A stretch of 44,304 nt of DNA. It comes from Candidatus Heimdallarchaeota archaeon (GTDB taxonomy: Archaea; Asgardarchaeota; Heimdallarchaeia; Heimdallarchaeales; Heimdallarchaeaceae). A program made the position numbers and the translations under genes. The notes under the pieces are model-generated. The model searched no databases, was not told the origin of the DNA, and saw nothing but the letters and a program-made list of their open reading frames with translations. Shown here piece after piece: positions 20,666 to 29,901 of the stretch (the first letter of the stretch is position 1; each line of letters starts with the position of its first letter). The stretch is from the NCBI GenBank assembly GCA_021399345.1, contig JAAFKI010000170.1, positions 1 to 44,304 on the forward strand. Direction: 5' to 3'.

Positions 20666-20989
20666 TTATGAATTGATGTCAAGTATGAATTCTGCAACTT
20701 CTTTAGCTACTCTTGAAATTTTATCCTTATTAGTATCGATTAATTCTGCTGATTCTTTTTCAGCTTTAATTATTAACTGTTCGAACTGCTTTGTATCTCT
20801 CGCTTCCTCGATTTTCTTTTTGAGTATCTCTCTCGCTTCATGTTTTGCCTGTTCCAACCTTCTTACTCTATCACTTTGAGCTTTTTCAATTAGAAAAGAT
20901 GCTTCAGTATTAGCTTCTGATACAATTTGATCTGCTTGTCGTTCAGCAATCTTTATTTGTTCTATAATCTCTTGTTCTTTTGATGGCAA
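20666..20989 (-). CDS. A/V-type ATPase peripheral stalk subunit H (G)
   Basis: About 107 aa, all-helical EAE/KA pattern (IEQIKIAERQADQIVSEA). TTG start at 20989 preceded by GGTGAG; alternative GTG at 20998. Confidence 0.75.
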   Translation of the reverse strand: MPSKEQEIIEQIKIAERQADQIVSEANTEASFLIEKAQSDRVRRLEQAKHEAREILKKKIEEARDTKQFEQLIIKAEKESAELIDTNKDKISRVAKEVAEFILDINS

Positions 20990-22038
20990 ATATCTCACCG
21001 GACATATCTTTTCTCACTAGTTATGTAAGAGGGCAACATGCTAAACTTCTTTCTAATGAAGACTTTGAAAACTTAATAAATAAACCTTATGAAGCCTTCA
21101 TAAATCATCTGACTTCTTTTGAAATTGGTGAGATTCTTAGGTTAGAGCCATCTTATCAATCCCATGAGATAGAGCGTATTCTAACAAGACAATTGTTAGA
21201 TCAGTATGACTTCATACTTCAAAACATGCCTAAATGGGGAAAAGAATTTCTTGAAGCATATATGATAAAATTTGAAGTAATGAATCTTCAGAGGATTATT
21301 AGATACCTCTACTCAAAAGCTCAAGTCAATTTAAGAGATGTAATTAATTTGCGAGCTCAAGAGATGCTTGGGAGAACTTCCTTTATAGCAAAACTTCTCC
21401 AGAGTGAAGATTTAGGCGTTTTTCTTGAGAGAATAAAACAAACAGAGTATAAGAAGGTAATCGAAATATCTGAAAAACTTTATAGTAAAGTGGGAGATAT
21501 CTGGCCACTTGAGTTTGCTTTAAATGTCCACTATTTGAATTTAATGTTAGAAAAAGCTCAAAAACTTCCTAGAAATCAAAGAAGCGGTGCATTAAGTTTT
21601 GTCTATCAAGAGCTGATTACAAGTGTTCTCCTCGTTATATTAAAAGCTGATTTTGTAAATGTTGATGTAAAGGATGCTTTAGAGTTAATCACATTGCCAA
21701 AAGATATACCATTCAGACGACAGATTGTATCCCTTGCTGATGAACGAAGTTTAAACATTGACTTAGAAATTCTCAAATCCTTAAATCAAGCTAAACTAAC
21801 TGAAGGTATAGAGCGATATGAGAAAGATAAAATGTTTTTACACATAGAGATTGCTTTGAGAGCGAGAGAATTAGAATTTATAAGAAAGGTTTACTATAGT
21901 GACTTTGGACTTTTAAGTATCCTCTGTTATCTTAAACAATACGAAGCTCAGATTCAGGATTTGAACAAATTGTTATATCTCAAGGAGTATAAGTTCCCTG
22001 TTGAAAAAACCAGGGAATTAATTGTAAGCCTTGTTTAG
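20983..22038 (+). CDS. atpC: A/V-type ATPase subunit C (d/AC39 family)
   Basis: YVRGQHAKLLSNEDFENL, KFEVMNLQRIIR, IKQTEY, LEFALNVHY and ILCYLKQYEAQIQDL; about 350 aa; ATPase locus context. Confidence 0.8.
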   Translation: MANISPDISFLTSYVRGQHAKLLSNEDFENLINKPYEAFINHLTSFEIGEILRLEPSYQSHEIERILTRQLLDQYDFILQNMPKWGKEFLEAYMIKFEVMNLQRIIRYLYSKAQVNLRDVINLRAQEMLGRTSFIAKLLQSEDLGVFLERIKQTEYKKVIEISEKLYSKVGDIWPLEFALNVHYLNLMLEKAQKLPRNQRSGALSFVYQELITSVLLVILKADFVNVDVKDALELITLPKDIPFRRQIVSLADERSLNIDLEILKSLNQAKLTEGIERYEKDKMFLHIEIALRARELEFIRKVYYSDFGLLSILCYLKQYEAQIQDLNKLLYLKEYKFPVEKTRELIVSLV

Positions 22039-22048
22039 ATGAACATCG

Positions 22049-22528
22049 TCAAACAACGATATTTAGGAGTATGAATGCAATTAGCAGACCATAAATTGCT
22101 AACGCCTCACCAAGACCTAGATAAATCAGATTTGGTGTGAACACTTCTGAATTTGCTGTTATTGAACCAATAGCTGCTGGCTCTCCTTTTGCAAGTGTAA
22201 TTGCTGCTCCTAGATTAGATACAACCATAATGAACATAGCTGCAATGTAAATCCAACCGTAAGTTAGACTAAAATCTGCTAATTGCAAAGTACCATCAAG
22301 ATAAGGTTGAATCTTCGTATACATTACAAATGCTATTAAGAGCCCATATATAGCTAAGGCCTCCGCTAAAGCTAAATAGATTAATATGAAAATATTTAAT
22401 CTCTGCTTTTCTGCAACAGCTGCAGCAGCTGCTTGAACTCCTTTTGCTAGCGGAATACCAGCTCCCAAAATTGTTAGCATAGTTCCTGCGATTCCAATTA
22501 TTCCTAATACATATCCTTCAATTGCCAT
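22049..22528 (-). CDS. atpK: A/V-type ATPase proteolipid subunit K (c), two-hairpin 16-kDa form
   Basis: Two repeats, LALAEALAIYGLLIAF and LGLGEALAIYGLLIAF. Confidence 0.92.
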   Translation of the reverse strand: MAIEGYVLGIIGIAGTMLTILGAGIPLAKGVQAAAAAVAEKQRLNIFILIYLALAEALAIYGLLIAFVMYTKIQPYLDGTLQLADFSLTYGWIYIAAMFIMVVSNLGAAITLAKGEPAAIGSITANSEVFTPNLIYLGLGEALAIYGLLIAFILLNIVV

Positions 22529-24572
22529 ATTTACTCAAATCCATTTCTTTATTGAAAACAAAAACTGGTTTATGTTGAATTCCACTTCCTTCATAGAATT
22601 TACTGAAGAATTCATAAAAATGTAATCTTAAAGTTTGAACAAAAACTAATAAACCTTCAAGAACTAGTACAAAGATATTACCAATTACTAAAATTAGTAT
22701 TTTAAAGAGAATAAACCCAACTTGTTCAGCTAATGCATTAATAACACTCAGGAAAACCGCATGAGCAATGAGCATTGCAAGCATTCTTCCATAAGAAATA
22801 GTGTTACTTATGAAAGAGCTGAATGATTCTAGAAGGTGAATTAACCCCATCCCCATTCCACTAAGAAAACTACGAAATATATTTTTTCTCTTCTTTTTGA
22901 ACAAGATAGCCACAATCCCATGACCAAAAAGCGTTAATCCTACTCCAATAATGACAGAAACAAGCCCAACTAAAAGAAAGCCTCTACCTGCTGGATCAAT
23001 TCCAATGTTTAGAATTCCAAGGCTGGAAAGAAAATATATAATTGCAGCATAAAGAAAAACTTGAGGAGTTGTTTGTTCTAATATTTCTGAATACTCCTTA
23101 TGTCTTATTTGATTTATTGTTCTAAGAATTATTCCTAAAATGACATGAAGAGCTCCTATTATCAAAGTTAAGTTGAAAATTTCTACTAAATCCTTAATTG
23201 GACTTATAAAGGGATATTCTAATCCAAATAGATATACTGGGTTAGTATACCCATGTTCTCTAATCCCTAATATCTCAACAATATGAAAACCAAAGGCTTC
23301 ACCAAAAATGAATCCCATGATTGACGAAGTTATACCCATTACTAGTACAAGTAAAAACATTTGCCTAATACTCTTTTTCAACCCCCTAGCCAATACTCCA
23401 GTTAAACCAATTACAAGAAAAATTAGACCGTGACCTACATCACCAAACATAATTCCAAAGAAAATACTAAATGTAAAAATTAAGAAAATCGTTGGATCGA
23501 CCTCGTTAGATGCAGGTAGTCCATAAAGAGCTACAATATTCTGAAATGCGCTCTTAATAGGATTCTTTGCAGTAGCTACAGGGATATTTTTCATCTCTTC
23601 TGGAGGTTCATCATATTCCAGTATTACTTCTGGAAACTCACCTATAGTTTCCTCAATTATCCCAATTTCCTTTTCTGATACCCATCCTTGAAAAACTACT
23701 ATTTTCTTGGTTTGCTTTGCGGAAACGTATATGTTTAAGAAGTGACTATAGCTTTCGATTGACAATTTTATTGCAACAATGTCTTCTTTGTGTTTTATTG
23801 CAAATTGATTTAGGTCATTTTCGATTTTAGATACTTCTTCACTTAAGTTATTAAATTCATTTAGAATTTCTTCCTCAAGTTCAGTTTTGTTTAAATGAAT
23901 CGGACCTTGATAGTTGTATTTATACCATCTTACAATAGATAGTTCTTTGATAAGTTTGGATATTTCTCCTTTTTTTCCTCTAACGTAAACAAAATGTCTA
24001 TCTTTAACTAAGGAAATTACTTCTTGTTTCTTAAAATGGGAAACAAAGTTTTCCGCATCTTCTATTCTAGATGTTGTTAATACACCTATTAATGCACTCT
24101 CATCAGAATCTACGTTATACGGCTGTTCTTCTTCTATAAGTCTAAAACCTTTAGCAATTAGTTGGTCATTTTCTTTTAATTCAGTAAGTTCTTCCAACTT
24201 ATTCTTTAAATTCTTAAGTTCACTGTTAAAGTTACTAATCTGATTTTCTAGTTTTGTTTCTATATCTTCTAAATTATCCCAGTTCTCAAAAATAGGTGAT
24301 ATCGTTTTCTGTTTTTTATAAGCTCTAGCTATTTTTTGTCTAAATTTCTCTTTAGGCTCAGGAATTTGAACTATAAGATCTTTATAAGCTGATTCTAATT
24401 GTCTAATTGTTTCCATTTTGGATGATGGATAAAAGTCTTCCAATCCGTCTATCGATATACTGTGCTTTACCATCAAACTTTCTGTTTCAGCTATTCTAAT
24501 AACTACTTGAGGAAACACATCTTTTGGTGTTATTATCGTTGCTTCTAACATTTTATCTGGAAATAAACCCAT
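22518..24572 (-). CDS. atpI: A/V-type ATPase subunit I (a)
   Basis: FQGWV, YGLP...EVDPT, FFGIMFGDVGHG, SNTISYGRMLA (essential Arg), LRLHFYEFFSKFY. ATG 24572 follows an AGGTGA SD; alternative GTG at 24581. Confidence 0.95.
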   Translation of the reverse strand: MGLFPDKMLEATIITPKDVFPQVVIRIAETESLMVKHSISIDGLEDFYPSSKMETIRQLESAYKDLIVQIPEPKEKFRQKIARAYKKQKTISPIFENWDNLEDIETKLENQISNFNSELKNLKNKLEELTELKENDQLIAKGFRLIEEEQPYNVDSDESALIGVLTTSRIEDAENFVSHFKKQEVISLVKDRHFVYVRGKKGEISKLIKELSIVRWYKYNYQGPIHLNKTELEEEILNEFNNLSEEVSKIENDLNQFAIKHKEDIVAIKLSIESYSHFLNIYVSAKQTKKIVVFQGWVSEKEIGIIEETIGEFPEVILEYDEPPEEMKNIPVATAKNPIKSAFQNIVALYGLPASNEVDPTIFLIFTFSIFFGIMFGDVGHGLIFLVIGLTGVLARGLKKSIRQMFLLVLVMGITSSIMGFIFGEAFGFHIVEILGIREHGYTNPVYLFGLEYPFISPIKDLVEIFNLTLIIGALHVILGIILRTINQIRHKEYSEILEQTTPQVFLYAAIIYFLSSLGILNIGIDPAGRGFLLVGLVSVIIGVGLTLFGHGIVAILFKKKRKNIFRSFLSGMGMGLIHLLESFSSFISNTISYGRMLAMLIAHAVFLSVINALAEQVGFILFKILILVIGNIFVLVLEGLLVFVQTLRLHFYEFFSKFYEGSGIQHKPVFVFNKEMDLSKYGN

Positions 24573-24581
24573 TTTCTTCAC

Positions 24582-25226
24582 CTATGCAAACAGAATCTCA
24601 TTTATTTTAGTTCTAATTTTATCTCTACTGGATTTCAATGTGTTTTCAATTGTATAATCAATCCTAATTCTCCCATAATCATCTGTGAGAATGAACCCAC
24701 CTTGTGTCTTCAAAGTCGAGACATCTACTTTGAAGTTTACCTTTTCCTTTTGAGCAATATTTGATGTGATTTTATTTAATATTTCCTTATCCTTTTTATC
24801 TGCAATAATTTTCATACTTTGTGCAGTGATGTTCCTTATTGTATAAATGAGAAGATTTTCTAAATATTTTGAATATCCTTTATTATCTCTCAATAATAGC
24901 ATTTCCTTTTTTACATGCTCGAAGACCTGATCAATCATACCTTCTCTAGCTTGAATAACTATTTTCTTTGCTTTTTGTTCAAATTCAGTCTCTGTTCTTT
25001 TTTTAATAAAATCCAATCTAGAGGTTTCTTTTTCCAACTCTTGTTTTTTAACTTCATCAACTTGTTTTTTAGTTCCCTTTTCTATCTCTTCCAATTTTTG
25101 TTTAGCTTCCCTATTTAGAATTTTAGCTTCTTCTTCCGCAGCATTCTTGATTTTGATAATCAGTCTTGTTAATGGACTGCTTTCAGTGTCTTCTTCGGGG
25201 AGCTCTTCATTTTTCATTTTCATCAC
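24582..25226 (-). CDS. atpE: A/V-type ATPase subunit E
   Basis: N-terminal coiled coil, GGFIL...IRIDYTIE, ILF end. Confidence 0.88.
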   Translation of the reverse strand: MMKMKNEELPEEDTESSPLTRLIIKIKNAAEEEAKILNREAKQKLEEIEKGTKKQVDEVKKQELEKETSRLDFIKKRTETEFEQKAKKIVIQAREGMIDQVFEHVKKEMLLLRDNKGYSKYLENLLIYTIRNITAQSMKIIADKKDKEILNKITSNIAQKEKVNFKVDVSTLKTQGGFILTDDYGRIRIDYTIENTLKSSRDKIRTKINEILFA

Positions 25227-25227
25227 T

Positions 25228-25656
25228 TTATACTGGAAAAAGTAAGACAGGTGTTTCTGACAATTCGACTACATACCTAACATAGTTTTTCAATAGTCTT
25301 TTTGTATAACTTTCCTTCCTTGTTCCCATAACTATGAAATCAACCTTTTCAGTTTTAGAGGTTTCAATTATTCTTTCAGCAACTAATCCTTGATCTAGTT
25401 CAGAAGTCATTAACAAATGAGTATCTGAAAAAGCAAGCTTGAGTTTTTCAAGAATGTTAGCATACTGAATGTGATATTCTTCTAGAATATGTTCAATAGT
25501 TGTGTTTCTATAACTAGCTAGAAGTTCTACATTTTCTCTATCAATTACATACAACAAATGTATTTCTGTAACCCAATCAAAGAAGAAATCAAGAATTTGA
25601 GAGATTAGATTTTTACCGCTTTCAAAATCTCCTATTGCAATAAGTGCTTTTTTCAT
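25228..25656 (-). CDS. Universal stress protein (UspA family)
   Basis: KKALIAI, IHLLYVID, GLVAERIIE, DFIVMG and TPVLLFP. Confidence 0.85.
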   Translation of the reverse strand: MKKALIAIGDFESGKNLISQILDFFFDWVTEIHLLYVIDRENVELLASYRNTTIEHILEEYHIQYANILEKLKLAFSDTHLLMTSELDQGLVAERIIETSKTEKVDFIVMGTRKESYTKRLLKNYVRYVVELSETPVLLFPV

Positions 25657-26300
25657 TAATTTCTCCTCTTTATTTTATTTTTTAACTCTATTTTTTGTTT
25701 GAGTTTTTTGATAGTATAGATACTCTCCAATTCATATGATTCTAACGCTTCCTCAATATATTTGACTATATTCCCAAATCTCACTCGGTATACTTTATCC
25801 AAAGCATTAAGACTTAATTGTGTAGATTGAAGATTACGAATTACTTTGTATGCAAAATTCTCAACTTCTGCTAATTCAACAATTAAATCAAATAAATCAC
25901 GAAATCTTTTTGCAGTTATCCACAGTGAACTAGATATTCCGAAGAATCCATATGATGGATCAGGGAGATTGGCTAACTGTAAATCAGAGTAAGACACGCC
26001 CATATATTCAAGAGGAATAGAATCTACCAAGACCTCTTTAGGGATTGTTTCACTAAAAACATTAATCATATCTTTTCCTAATTCTGATTCAGTTTTGATA
26101 TATTCATAATAAGCATCACTAAGATTTTCCTCCATTTTCTCTCTCATCAAAATTGCTTGTGATGAGATGATATGTAATTTCATTAATAATGCTTCATATT
26201 TCTCTCTTAGTAAATCGTATGCTCTTTCAACTAATTGGAGCTTTTTCTTGTATTTTAACAAGTTATCCTTTGTTGGAGGAACATTAATTACTTCTCTCAA
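25656..26300 (-). CDS. atpD: A/V-type ATPase subunit D
   Basis: PPTKDNLL, LLREKYEAL, MGV, LAEVE and NAL motifs; TTGA overlap with the atpB stop. Confidence 0.92.
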   Translation of the reverse strand: MREVINVPPTKDNLLKYKKKLQLVERAYDLLREKYEALLMKLHIISSQAILMREKMEENLSDAYYEYIKTESELGKDMINVFSETIPKEVLVDSIPLEYMGVSYSDLQLANLPDPSYGFFGISSSLWITAKRFRDLFDLIVELAEVENFAYKVIRNLQSTQLSLNALDKVYRVRFGNIVKYIEEALESYELESIYTIKKLKQKIELKNKIKRRN

Positions 26301-27691
26301 TCTGAATCAGCTCCTTTATTATGGATATGTTCCCGAATTAGATCTTCAGATACTTTGGTTAATTCAGTTTCTGGAAGATTGGATAATAACGACCATCCAA
26401 GATTTAAAGAATCTTCATTTGATCGGTAGACATCCCCTTGGTTCACAAAATTATCTTCAAATTTATCTGCAAACTCATACAAAATCTGATCTCGACGGTT
26501 TAGCTCCTTTTTTCCAATTACTTCTGCAAGTCTTCTCTTATCTAATCCTTCAGCATAAGACGCATAAAGTTGATTGCTTAAAGAAGGATGGTCCTTTCTT
26601 GTATAACCTTCTCCAATTCCGTCTTTCATTAAACGAGAAAGCGACCCCAAAACATCAATTGGCGGATAAATTCCTCTATTATGTAAAGAACGATCGAGGA
26701 TAATTTGACCTTCTGTAATATAGCCTGTCAAGTCAGGAATAGGGTGAGTAATATCATCATTTGGCATTGTCAAATTTGCAATTAGAGTAATGCTTCCTTG
26801 TGAATCTTCTATTATTCCTGCTCTTTCGTATATTGAGGCTAAATCCGAATACATGTAACCAGGAAAACCCTTTCTAGATGGTACAGTTTCTAGAGCAACT
26901 GAAATTTCTCTTAAAGCCTGACAATAATTAGTTATATCAGATAATATTGCTAGAACATGGTAGCCCTTATCAAAAGCTAGATACTCAGCAGTTGTTAATG
27001 CAACTCGAGGAGTTATAAGTCTCTCAGCAGCTGAATCACTTGCCAAATTAGTATACATTACAACTTTGTTTAGAGTACCTGTTTCTTCAAATAGGCGCTG
27101 GAAATAGATGTAATCATCCATTGTCAAACCCATGGCACCAAAAACAATAGCAAATTTATCTTCACTATCTGCTCCTACAATTCTTGCTTGTTTCACTATC
27201 TGGCCTATCAGCTGATTGTTTGGTAACCCAGCTCCAGTAAAGATAGGTAATTTTTGACCTCTTACTAATGTGTTCATTGAATCTATTGAAGAAATTCCTG
27301 TTTCGATGTAATCCCTTGGATAAATTCTAGATGTTGGGTTGATTGGGGATCCATTAATATCCCTGTATTCATCTGAATAGATGCTGGGTAATCCATCCAA
27401 CGGCTCTCCTTGAGAGTTAAATACTCTACCAATCATATCTTCAGCTACAAAAAGCTGCATAGTTCTTCCAAAAAATTCAGTTTCAATTTCATCCTTTTCT
27501 AGTTCATATGTACCTTGGTAAAGCAGAATGATGACTCTTTCCTCTTCAATTGCTAAAACTCTACCTTTTCTAGAAGGTTTGTTTGGCAGATTAACTTCTA
27601 AATATTCTCCCATACGGATACCTGTAACACCTTCTATGATAATGATTGGTCCTCGAATTTCTGATACTCCACTAACTGTTATACGAGCCAT
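26297..27691 (-). CDS. atpB: A/V-type ATPase subunit B
   Basis: RGQKLPIF, PGYMYSDL, DDITHPIPDLTGYITEGQI and SLSRLM. Confidence 0.97.
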   Translation of the reverse strand: MARITVSGVSEIRGPIIIIEGVTGIRMGEYLEVNLPNKPSRKGRVLAIEEERVIILLYQGTYELEKDEIETEFFGRTMQLFVAEDMIGRVFNSQGEPLDGLPSIYSDEYRDINGSPINPTSRIYPRDYIETGISSIDSMNTLVRGQKLPIFTGAGLPNNQLIGQIVKQARIVGADSEDKFAIVFGAMGLTMDDYIYFQRLFEETGTLNKVVMYTNLASDSAAERLITPRVALTTAEYLAFDKGYHVLAILSDITNYCQALREISVALETVPSRKGFPGYMYSDLASIYERAGIIEDSQGSITLIANLTMPNDDITHPIPDLTGYITEGQIILDRSLHNRGIYPPIDVLGSLSRLMKDGIGEGYTRKDHPSLSNQLYASYAEGLDKRRLAEVIGKKELNRRDQILYEFADKFEDNFVNQGDVYRSNEDSLNLGWSLLSNLPETELTKVSEDLIREHIHNKGADSD

Positions 27692-27694
27692 TCA

Positions 27695-29497
27695 TCACAC
27701 CTTATATCCGTATTTAGAACCTAGTTCCTCCATATCTGTATGGATGTAATCTTCTATTTTGTTCATTTTGATTATATTGTCATTTTGGATGTCTTCTTTC
27801 ATTCGTTTTAATATCTGAACTGTTTTTAAACTAATAATTAAAGAGATTGGGCACCCATTCTTAATTAGAACCTCAGCTCTATTATAAAATAGAAGCATAA
27901 GTTTCATCATTTTCATTTGTTTTTCAATAGGACAGAAAGAATCAATCTTATCAAAGGCATTTTGCTGGAGAAATCCTTCTTTAATTATTTCTGCTACTAA
28001 TATGATTAACTGTTCATCAGCAGGTAATGCCTTTGAACCAATTAGCTCAGCAATATGTTGAAGCTCATCATCTTTTTGTAAAATTGTAAACATCTCTTGC
28101 CGATAACGACCCCAATCCTCCAAATTGGCCTCTAAAGCCCATTCTTCTATTATTTTTATATATCCTGAATAACTGTTTAGCCAGTTAATTGAAGGGAAGT
28201 GCTTTCTGTTTGCTAAATTGGAATCTAGACCCCAAAAAGTCTTTACAAAACGTTTTGTATTTGCAGTAACTGGTTCACTAAAATCACCACCGGGAGGAGA
28301 AACAGCAGCAGTAATGTTAATTGACCCCTCTCTATATGGAGCGCCTAATGTAACAACTTGACCCGCTCTTTCATAGAAGTTAGCTAACCTAGCCCCTAAA
28401 TATGCAGGATATCCTTCTTCTACTGGCATCTCTTCTAATTGTCCGGCTATTTCTCTCAAAGCTTCTGCCCAACGACTTGTACTATCTGCAGTAAGTAAAA
28501 CGCTGTATCCCTGGTCTCTATAGAATTCAGCCATAGTTATTCCCATGTAAATTGAGGCTTCTCTAGCTGCAACAGGCATATTAGAAACATTAGCGATTAA
28601 CAATGTTCTATCCATGAGTGGGTTTTGAGTGTGTGGATCTACAAGTTTAGGAAATTCTCTCAAAACCTCAGTCATTTCATTTCCTCTCTCTCCACAACCA
28701 ATGTATACAACAACATCAGCATTACTCCATTTAGATAATTGATGCTGAAGGATAGTCTTACCTGTTCCAAATCCTCCTGGAATTGCAGCAGTTCCACCTT
28801 TGGTAATCGGGAAGAACATATCTATTATTCTTTGACCCGTTACAAGAGGTTCAGACACAGGTAATTTTTTTAAGAATGGTCTGGCAACTCTTACAGGCCA
28901 TTCGTGCATTAAAGTTAATTCTTTCTTCTTTTTATCTGATCCTTCTAACTCAGCTATAGGATCTGTGATCTTAAATTCTCCTTTATCTTGAATGGATAGT
29001 AATTCCCCATTTGTATTAGGAGGAACAAGAATATTACACTTTATTGTTTCTGTCTCTTGAACAAAGCCTAATACATCACCTCCTTTCACCAAATTACCTT
29101 TTGTTAAATCTTTACTTGGTTCGAACTGCCATTTTTTGTGTCTATCTAAGGCATTGATATGAATTCCTCTTTGGATAAATGATGAAGATGTTGCTTTCTT
29201 TATTTGCTCTAATGGCCTTTGAATTCCATCAAAAATATTAGATAATAATCCTGGACCAAGTTCAGCTGAAAGAGATTTTCCTGTAAGGTGAACCGGATCA
29301 TTTATCTTCAATCCCTCAAGTGGTTCATAAACCTGAACTGTAGCAAAATCTCGTTCAATTTCGATAATTTCACCTATGAGTCTTTCTTCTCCAACATAGG
29401 TTATTTCTCCCATCCTATACGATGAAAGACCTCTAACTTCAACAGTAGAACCTTTTATTGTTACAATTCTGGCTCTTTCTTTAGTTGACTGAGGCAT
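27695..29497 (-). CDS. atpA: A/V-type ATPase catalytic subunit A (no intein)
   Basis: ELGPGL, GGFGTGKT, GCGERGNE, NMPVAAREAS, DSTSRWAEALRE and SPPGGDFSEPVT. Confidence 0.98.
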   Translation of the reverse strand: MPQSTKERARIVTIKGSTVEVRGLSSYRMGEITYVGEERLIGEIIEIERDFATVQVYEPLEGLKINDPVHLTGKSLSAELGPGLLSNIFDGIQRPLEQIKKATSSSFIQRGIHINALDRHKKWQFEPSKDLTKGNLVKGGDVLGFVQETETIKCNILVPPNTNGELLSIQDKGEFKITDPIAELEGSDKKKKELTLMHEWPVRVARPFLKKLPVSEPLVTGQRIIDMFFPITKGGTAAIPGGFGTGKTILQHQLSKWSNADVVVYIGCGERGNEMTEVLREFPKLVDPHTQNPLMDRTLLIANVSNMPVAAREASIYMGITMAEFYRDQGYSVLLTADSTSRWAEALREIAGQLEEMPVEEGYPAYLGARLANFYERAGQVVTLGAPYREGSINITAAVSPPGGDFSEPVTANTKRFVKTFWGLDSNLANRKHFPSINWLNSYSGYIKIIEEWALEANLEDWGRYRQEMFTILQKDDELQHIAELIGSKALPADEQLIILVAEIIKEGFLQQNAFDKIDSFCPIEKQMKMMKLMLLFYNRAEVLIKNGCPISLIISLKTVQILKRMKEDIQNDNIIKMNKIEDYIHTDMEELGSKYGYKV

Positions 29498-29589: not shown

Positions 29590-29901
29590 ATGTCAAATCT
29601 GGAGTCATCAAAGAAAGCTTTTGTTATTGGAGCTAGAGAAACTGTGAGAGGTTTTAATTTAATAGGTGTTCCAGGTCAGGAAGTATTCACACCTGAAGAA
29701 ACGCTTAAAAAACTGGAAGAAACTTTGCAAAAAGACTATTCTTTGATTATTCTTTCTGCTTCTTCGATAATTGGAATCGAGGATACTCTTGAACACATTA
29801 GATTAGAAAATGCAACACCAATAATTGTTCTTTCGGATGTTAATACCAAAAACGATCCTAGAGAGTTAGAAACAAAATTTAGAAAGTTTATAGGTTATTA
29901 G
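29590..29901 (+). CDS. atpF: A/V-type ATPase subunit F
   Basis: FVIGARETVRGFNLIGV, YSLIIL, PIIV and RKFIG end; 103 aa. Confidence 0.88.
   Translation: MSNLESSKKAFVIGARETVRGFNLIGVPGQEVFTPEETLKKLEETLQKDYSLIILSASSIIGIEDTLEHIRLENATPIIVLSDVNTKNDPRELETKFRKFIGY

Follow-up and report, generated by a model that had tools for sequence, protein, structure and literature searches.

Does a universal stress protein (USP) whose gene lies among the subunit genes of an archaeal A-type ATPase work for that enzyme, or is it only expressed together with it? This question is raised by a contig of Candidatus Heimdallarchaeota archaeon (JAAFKI010000170.1), all 44,304 nucleotides of which were analysed (hereafter the window; GC content 32%) and on which the gene usp is found between atpD and atpE. 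F-type and eukaryotic V-type ATPases have several protein regulators, and we know of no dedicated protein regulator for prokaryotic A/V-type ATPases. USPs, for their part, are a family whose molecular functions are mostly unknown.

An ORF scan of the window returned minus-strand usp as the sole long open reading frame at 25228-25656. The gene and the ribosome-binding signal in front of it are as follows.

25228-25656, minus strand: usp, 142 aa, starting with ATG; match to PF00582 and model with the USP fold
25663-25668, minus strand: Shine-Dalgarno-like GAGGAG, 6 nt upstream of the usp ATG and within the 3' end of atpD

The stop codon of atpD (TAA, 25658-25656) and the start codon of usp (ATG, 25656-25654) have one base in common, which gives the sequence TAATG. 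This overlap, together with its GAGGAG, had been pointed out in the original prediction and was recovered both by the ORF scan and by reading of the sequence. In orthologous loci the reading frames of D and usp likewise overlap or nearly abut, the junction being a TAATG, ATGA or ATTAA overlap, and GAGGAG or GAGGTG precedes usp at equal spacing in 18 orthologous loci. Scans for bacterial-type promoters and terminators inside the operon gave nothing above shuffled background. As judged from the sequence, usp is co-transcribed and translationally coupled with atpD.

On the other side, usp had been described as ending 1 bp before atpE. This stands for the longest atpE frame, which opens with GTG 25226 one base after the usp stop codon (TAA, 25230-25228). 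However, among 15 orthologues compared, this GTG is unconserved, Gly or Ser codons being found there in some of them, and an (A)GGTGAT-like ribosome-binding site overlaps it. Since the conserved start of atpE is the fourth codon, ATG 25217-25215, and not the GTG, the true spacer between usp and atpE is probably about 10 nt, which is still tight.

Start codons vary in some related loci. ATT or ATC replaces ATG at the conserved usp start in L014-L021 (about positions 1498-1503), 6-7 nt past GAGGTG or AGGTGAT, and downstream of usp the atpE start is likewise ATT or ATC instead of ATG in L010-L012. In such loci, either the ATT and ATC starts are used or translation begins at the GTG inside the ribosome-binding site, as in the annotators' 145-aa versions.

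The encoded protein matches the Pfam Usp family (PF00582) with 48 bits for a cut-off of 24 (E 2.4e-12), residues 1-140 aligning on model positions 1-140. When Pfam and NCBIfam were searched for homology to A/V-ATPase subunits, USP matches only were obtained, and all nine subunit genes (A, B, C, D, E, F, H, I and K) are present separately in the surrounding module. The AlphaFold2 model (pLDDT 88.4, pTM 0.82) has the predicted five-stranded parallel fold of USPs, in the order beta-alpha-beta-alpha-alpha-beta-alpha-beta-alpha-beta. A Foldseek search with this model gave 60 PDB matches at E<=0.001 and, among the matches listed, all are USPs or USP-like, with MJ0577, PH0823 and YnaF in the lead and TeaD at rank 10.

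MJ0577 of Methanocaldococcus jannaschii (1mjh), the archetypal ATP-binding USP, is the best match in sequence and fold among solved structures (Foldseek E 1e-7). To our knowledge, its gene is not linked to an ATPase. While MJ0577 has the motif G127-SH-G130-9x-G140-S, the corresponding region of the window USP reads G111-TR-K114-...-K123-N124-Y125, in a loop one residue shorter than in MJ0577 and typical USPs. The signature G-2x-G-9x-G(S/T) is lacking, the second and third glycines and the S/T all being replaced, and the degenerate nucleotide-binding signature reported earlier is thus confirmed. Position 114 is K or R in 14 of the 15 orthologues and Q in the remaining one (L031); K123-N124-Y/H125 stand in the orthologues where G-S/T is expected, with S-T in L031. 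Residues 115-122 of this loop, rich in Lys and Arg, are the sole low-confidence part of the model.

The adenine and ribose side of the site has fared differently from the phosphate side. Most orthologues retain D10, V37 and G111, each invariant or conserved to at least 90%, whereas the glycines that bind phosphate have gone; in an alignment of 19 sequences D10 and V37 do not vary, and they are still at least 90% conserved once L031 is added. These two residues correspond to the ATP-related D13 and V41 of MJ0577 (table in PMC3673472). The window USP has likely lost ATP binding, a reading that goes no further than likely because AF0826 of Archaeoglobus fulgidus (G-IR-K-9x-GSV), which carries a lysine, binds dAMP, and because a degenerate motif alone does not exclude nucleotide binding (PMC3673472). 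AF0826 has this lysine in place of the second glycine, as does the window USP with K114, but it keeps the final G-S that the window USP has lost, and it has no ATPase context.

The operon that hosts usp encodes a second, divergent A-type ATPase, gathered in a compact ten-gene module with the layout F / A-B-D-USP-E-I-K / C / H; that the genome has another ATPase besides this one had escaped the original prediction. The nine subunit genes are the following.

29590-29901, plus strand: atpF, subunit F (PF01990, 41 bits), divergent from atpA, position conserved
27695-29497, minus strand: atpA, catalytic subunit A (Pfam match; best solved relative the A subunit of Pyrococcus horikoshii, 697 bits)
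26297-27691, minus strand: atpB, non-catalytic subunit B (PF00006, PF22919)
25656-26300, minus strand: atpD, central stalk subunit D (PF01813, 102 bits)
24582-25226, minus strand: atpE, peripheral stalk subunit E (PF01991, 75 bits), likely start ATG 25217
22518-24581, minus strand: atpI, stator subunit I/a (PF01496)
22049-22528, minus strand: atpK, proteolipid c with two hairpins (PF00137, two stretches)
20980-22038, plus strand: atpC, subunit C/d (PF01992, 101 bits), position and strand constant in loci long enough
20666-20998, minus strand: atpH, peripheral stalk subunit H (weak NCBIfam match to AhaH/subunit H, 23-24 bits, below cut-off), position conserved

In the genome as a whole (G000, 88.6% complete) PF00006 is matched by four genes, and D, E, I and C are each present twice. 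The genes of the ordinary ATPase are scattered over four other contigs.

G000 C115:105-5631 (locus L035): ordinary ATPase F, A and B
G000 C89:9239-9889 (locus L023): ordinary ATPase D
G000 C53:4337-4903: ordinary ATPase E
G000 C123:53097-56066: ordinary ATPase I and C

The two A subunits of this genome are 52% identical. Against the Pfam models, A, B, E, I and C of the window score like their paralogues, and D and F alone are far from the models (D 102 vs 183 bits, F 41 vs 76 bits). The ordinary D type is present in nearly all relatives of the class and is the best match other than the window type in all 55 relatives with a D match. The window D type was recovered only from 20 of the 24 genomes of its own GTDB genus and from a single genome of a second genus, whose contig ends inside D.

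The presence of two full ATPase sets in one genome, with D and F as the selectively divergent subunits and usp coupled to D, is what an assembly factor specific to one paralogue would lead one to expect. Such a USP would act as a chaperone that brings the divergent shaft of D and F together with the A3B3 head of its own set, so that mixed complexes are avoided, and would be absent from the finished enzyme. Against this, we know of no USP that acts as an assembly chaperone of a rotary ATPase, and we hold this explanation to be quite unlikely.

Recent transfer was also considered as the origin of the operon and was rejected: the nearest A subunits outside the clade, from mixed archaea and Anaerolineae, are only 54-58% identical, the window D is an isolated long branch on the D tree, and no donor can be named.

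The original prediction had named, as an outcome that would speak against it, an insertion unique to this genome. This is not what is found: USP stands at the D-E junction in all the Heimdallarchaeaceae copies that were inspected, which come from more than 20 loci and include USPs of as little as 37% identity, and since it is present in every related operon examined the arrangement is far beyond chance. A protein search of whole genomes recovered USP in 19 of 24 genomes of the same genus and, in one more, a fragment of it at the end of a contig; the order B-D-USP-E-I is present in all 19 genomes with a match. The same-genus genomes without USP (five of the 24) are also without the window D type; these absences were given no weight, because assembly gaps may explain both. 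In other genera the USP clade was not found, and two closed genomes of a sister genus (G027 and G030) have neither USP nor the window D type. Genome G000 itself has one other USP only.

When 19 loci were inspected with flanks of 8 kb, the full module was found wherever the contig is long enough. The most divergent lineages (L031-L034) also have B-D-USP-E-I. Identity of L031 and L034 to the window is 70-71% for A, 58% for D, 45-46% for I, 38-40% for E and 37-38% for USP. A profile search of 1.84 billion representative proteins returned the clade and two distant full-length members, followed by generic USPs at 72 bits or less. The two distant relatives also match PF00582 (P0124 with 56.6 bits, P0125 with 38.1 bits) and both are encoded directly after atpD, P0124 in the order D-Usp-E and P0125 overlapping D. 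In the genome, flank and 1.84-billion-representative searches, no member of the Heimdall USP clade was seen away from atpD.

Selection on usp is of the same order as on the subunit genes. Pairwise dN/dS between the closer genomes is 0.16 for USP (range 0.08-0.31), 0.14 for D, 0.19 for F, 0.21 for H, 0.30 for E and 0.04 for K, and the total length of the USP tree with fixed topology (4.33) is similar to those of E, F and H. An alignment of 15 orthologues, the most distant at 39% identity, has 19 invariant columns. By these sequence comparisons, USP evolves as a peripheral ATPase subunit would, unlike a decaying insert, and usp is a real gene under purifying selection that is inseparable from the operon of the second ATPase. 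A neutral passenger or decaying insertion devoid of function, which the degenerate ATP-binding motif might have suggested, is difficult to reconcile with a frame that is intact at every locus, with the dN/dS values and invariant columns, and with a confidently predicted fold. It is effectively refuted by the conservation data, and we give it next to no credence.

The pairing of atpD with usp extends beyond Heimdall archaea. It had been assumed that standard A-ATPase operons have no USP; this held for four of the five operons reached through relatives of subunit A (Thermoplasmata, Methanomethylicota and two others, all without USP) but failed for the fifth, from Anaerolineae (L055), which has the order C-I-K-F-E-A-B-D-Usp and a USP with a near-canonical G-2x-G-10x-G-S motif. 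It failed as well in metagenomes. A scan with a subunit D alignment collected 80 atpD loci, 69 of them with enough downstream sequence, and USPs were called with a model made from a diverse set of 20 USPs. Of the 69 informative loci, 32 have a USP gene immediately 3' of atpD and on the same strand, a proportion (46%) that overstates the general frequency because the loci were ranked by similarity to a query D whose operon has a USP. Elsewhere in the 69 loci, no USP was found. Other Asgard genomes with two ATPases (G055, G231, G083, G148 and G253) have no USP beside either operon.

When D sequences were clustered at 70% identity or more, 11 clusters had USP throughout, 13 had none and 2 were mixed, and the USP-bearing lineages form several separate clades on the D tree. 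The recurrence of the pairing in D lineages only about 35-40% identical to the query is real. Of three single-domain USPs taken from the search of representatives, two were picked for a motif similar to that of the window USP and are linked to atpD: P0141 comes from the order A-B-D-Usp, where the overlap is 4 nt, and P0243 from B-D-Usp-x-K. The third, P0143, is not linked to atpD. With P0243, Heimdall archaea are not alone in having a USP gene inside the operon.

The USPs linked to atpD elsewhere (L055; L060-L136; L140, L141) are of the same family and strand and lie directly 3' of atpD, often overlapping it or within 20-200 nt. They are usually encoded by the last gene of the operon and often have a near-canonical ATP motif, unlike the Heimdall usp, which is internal, with E-I-K behind it, and degenerate in its motif. 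They form a heterogeneous group, in which the ATP motif is retained by many and has been lost in several, not always in the same way. The Heimdall profile gives them 14-41 bits, below unlinked USPs such as P0143, and one common origin for all of them, which was considered, is unsupported by these scores. The pairing is either ancient or has repeatedly arisen, and in both cases it argues for a functional link of USP with the A-B-D part of the enzyme. Since the atpD-linked USPs may be of more than one family, the chance capture, several times over, of a gene from an abundant family at an operon end may account for some lineages. This wider and unstudied pairing includes the Heimdall USP, which is unusual for its internal position and has a degenerate motif. 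In the literature searched, among it a 2026 preprint on the comparison of operon structures of A-ATPases, no report was met of a USP encoded in the operon of a rotary ATPase.

Three neighbourhoods met in these surveys are worth recording. In L055 (546-2594) a gene for a membrane pyrophosphatase (H_PPase) lies on the other strand about 1.5 kb away from the atpD-usp operon, and there are sensor kinases downstream. In L141 (2595-3168) the atpD-linked USP is followed by an ORF of 66 residues and a c-subunit gene. G231 has a 42-residue Usp-like fragment (C204:117245-117370, 24 bits) about 7 kb from the A and B genes of its second ATPase, which is probably incidental.

The patchiness of the pairing on the D tree, its absence from four of the five operons sampled through subunit A and the heterogeneity of the atpD-linked USPs in sequence and motif would also be consistent with a general stress protein, co-expressed with the ATPase under the same condition (energy or ion stress) and acting elsewhere, with no contact with the enzyme. 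Most USPs are indeed without a known specific partner. A free-standing function would however be expected to survive elsewhere in the genome, and the Heimdall USP clade is never seen apart from atpD nor found in relatives without the operon; furthermore, USP was kept with D when E-I-K were placed behind it, and the overlapping frames are conserved. We thus regard a general stress protein as possible but rather unlikely.

The explanation that we favour, and judge somewhat probable, is that the USP is an accessory protein, regulatory or for assembly, dedicated to the soluble A3B3D motor of the second ATPase. The original prediction of a dedicated accessory protein agrees with it: usp is a real gene, purifying selection acts on it, and its link to the operon is strict. 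The USP would be made together with the subunits of the second ATPase by translational coupling to atpD, the gene of the rotor shaft, and would associate physically with the enzyme. Its likeliest target would be the soluble A3B3D(F) motor, because USP stayed with A-B-D through the rearrangement that brought E-I-K behind it and because D and F have diverged. There it may act as a regulator or as an assembly aid, a brake on ATP hydrolysis being no more than one option and a role in assembly the other.

Two computations addressed contacts between USP and the subunits. A complex prediction of USP with D, F and C (alignments of 15 rows each) scored 0.00 against a mark of 0.32, a result that counts neither in favour of binding nor against it. 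Rate covariation on a fixed tree of 15 taxa gave no significant correlation between USP and any subunit, the best values being those for C (r=0.31) and D (r=0.29); the method is powerless here because the known partners E-H (r=0.00) and D-F (r=0.12) also show none.

A precedent for an operon-encoded USP with a partner is TeaD of Halomonas elongata, which is encoded in the teaABCD operon of a TRAP transporter and has been reported to regulate this transporter (Schweikhard 2010, as cited in PMC12159084 and PMC3673472). Like TeaD (3hgm; Foldseek E 3.5e-6, TM 0.69), the Heimdall USP is a single-domain protein encoded in the operon of a membrane transport machine; its operon position is conserved in all Heimdall loci examined and recurs after atpD in other lineages. 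The two proteins differ in that TeaD, according to the accounts available in these sources, binds ATP and changes its oligomeric state with it, whereas the Heimdall USP is without the phosphate-binding glycines, and in that the partner of TeaD is a TRAP transporter while the candidate partner here is a rotary ATPase. The Heimdall case is best placed, as a variant, within this known theme, in which a USP is encoded by the operon of the transport machine that it serves.

By analogy with TeaD, those atpD-linked USPs that keep the motif could couple ATPase activity to the adenylate level. The Heimdall USP would now probably be a nucleotide-independent or differently liganded partner: since its phosphate loop has been rebuilt into a basic, flexible segment, it may be a constitutive partner or bind another ligand. 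A broader and more speculative proposal, which we consider unlikely, is that atpD-linked USPs are widespread but overlooked regulatory subunits of the V/A-type ATPases of prokaryotes that bind A3B3D(F) and gate ATP hydrolysis or synthesis by adenylate state, the Heimdall one having turned into a fixed tenth subunit, devoid of nucleotide sensing, of a specialised second ATPase. If this were true, USP would fill the role held in other rotary ATPases by IF1, epsilon, zeta or the eukaryotic subunit H. With IF1, the C-terminal domain of epsilon, zeta and subunit H of eukaryotic V-ATPases, USP would share this hypothetical role only, the curbing of wasteful ATP hydrolysis; they have no relation to it in sequence or fold, Pfam giving Usp alone.

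Were the favoured explanation borne out, a member of the USP family would gain a specific partner. The gene can be cloned, and its product is a good candidate, open to direct test, for what would be the first protein partner dedicated to an A/V-type ATPase of a prokaryote; the gene comes from Heimdall archaea, close relatives of eukaryotes, which keep two distinct rotary ATPases.

Further features of the module concern its outer genes. atpC and atpH lie head to head on opposite strands, with starts that overlap in the window (20980-20998) and in L031-L033 (7 nt in the called genes, L031:13309-13315), and in all loci of sufficient length they keep this position and opposite orientation. In the most divergent lineage, a response-regulator/PAS gene is found between atpF and atpA, on the same strand as atpA and directly upstream of it (L031:3204-4691, L032:566-2053), a neighbour that hints at signal-dependent control of the second ATPase.
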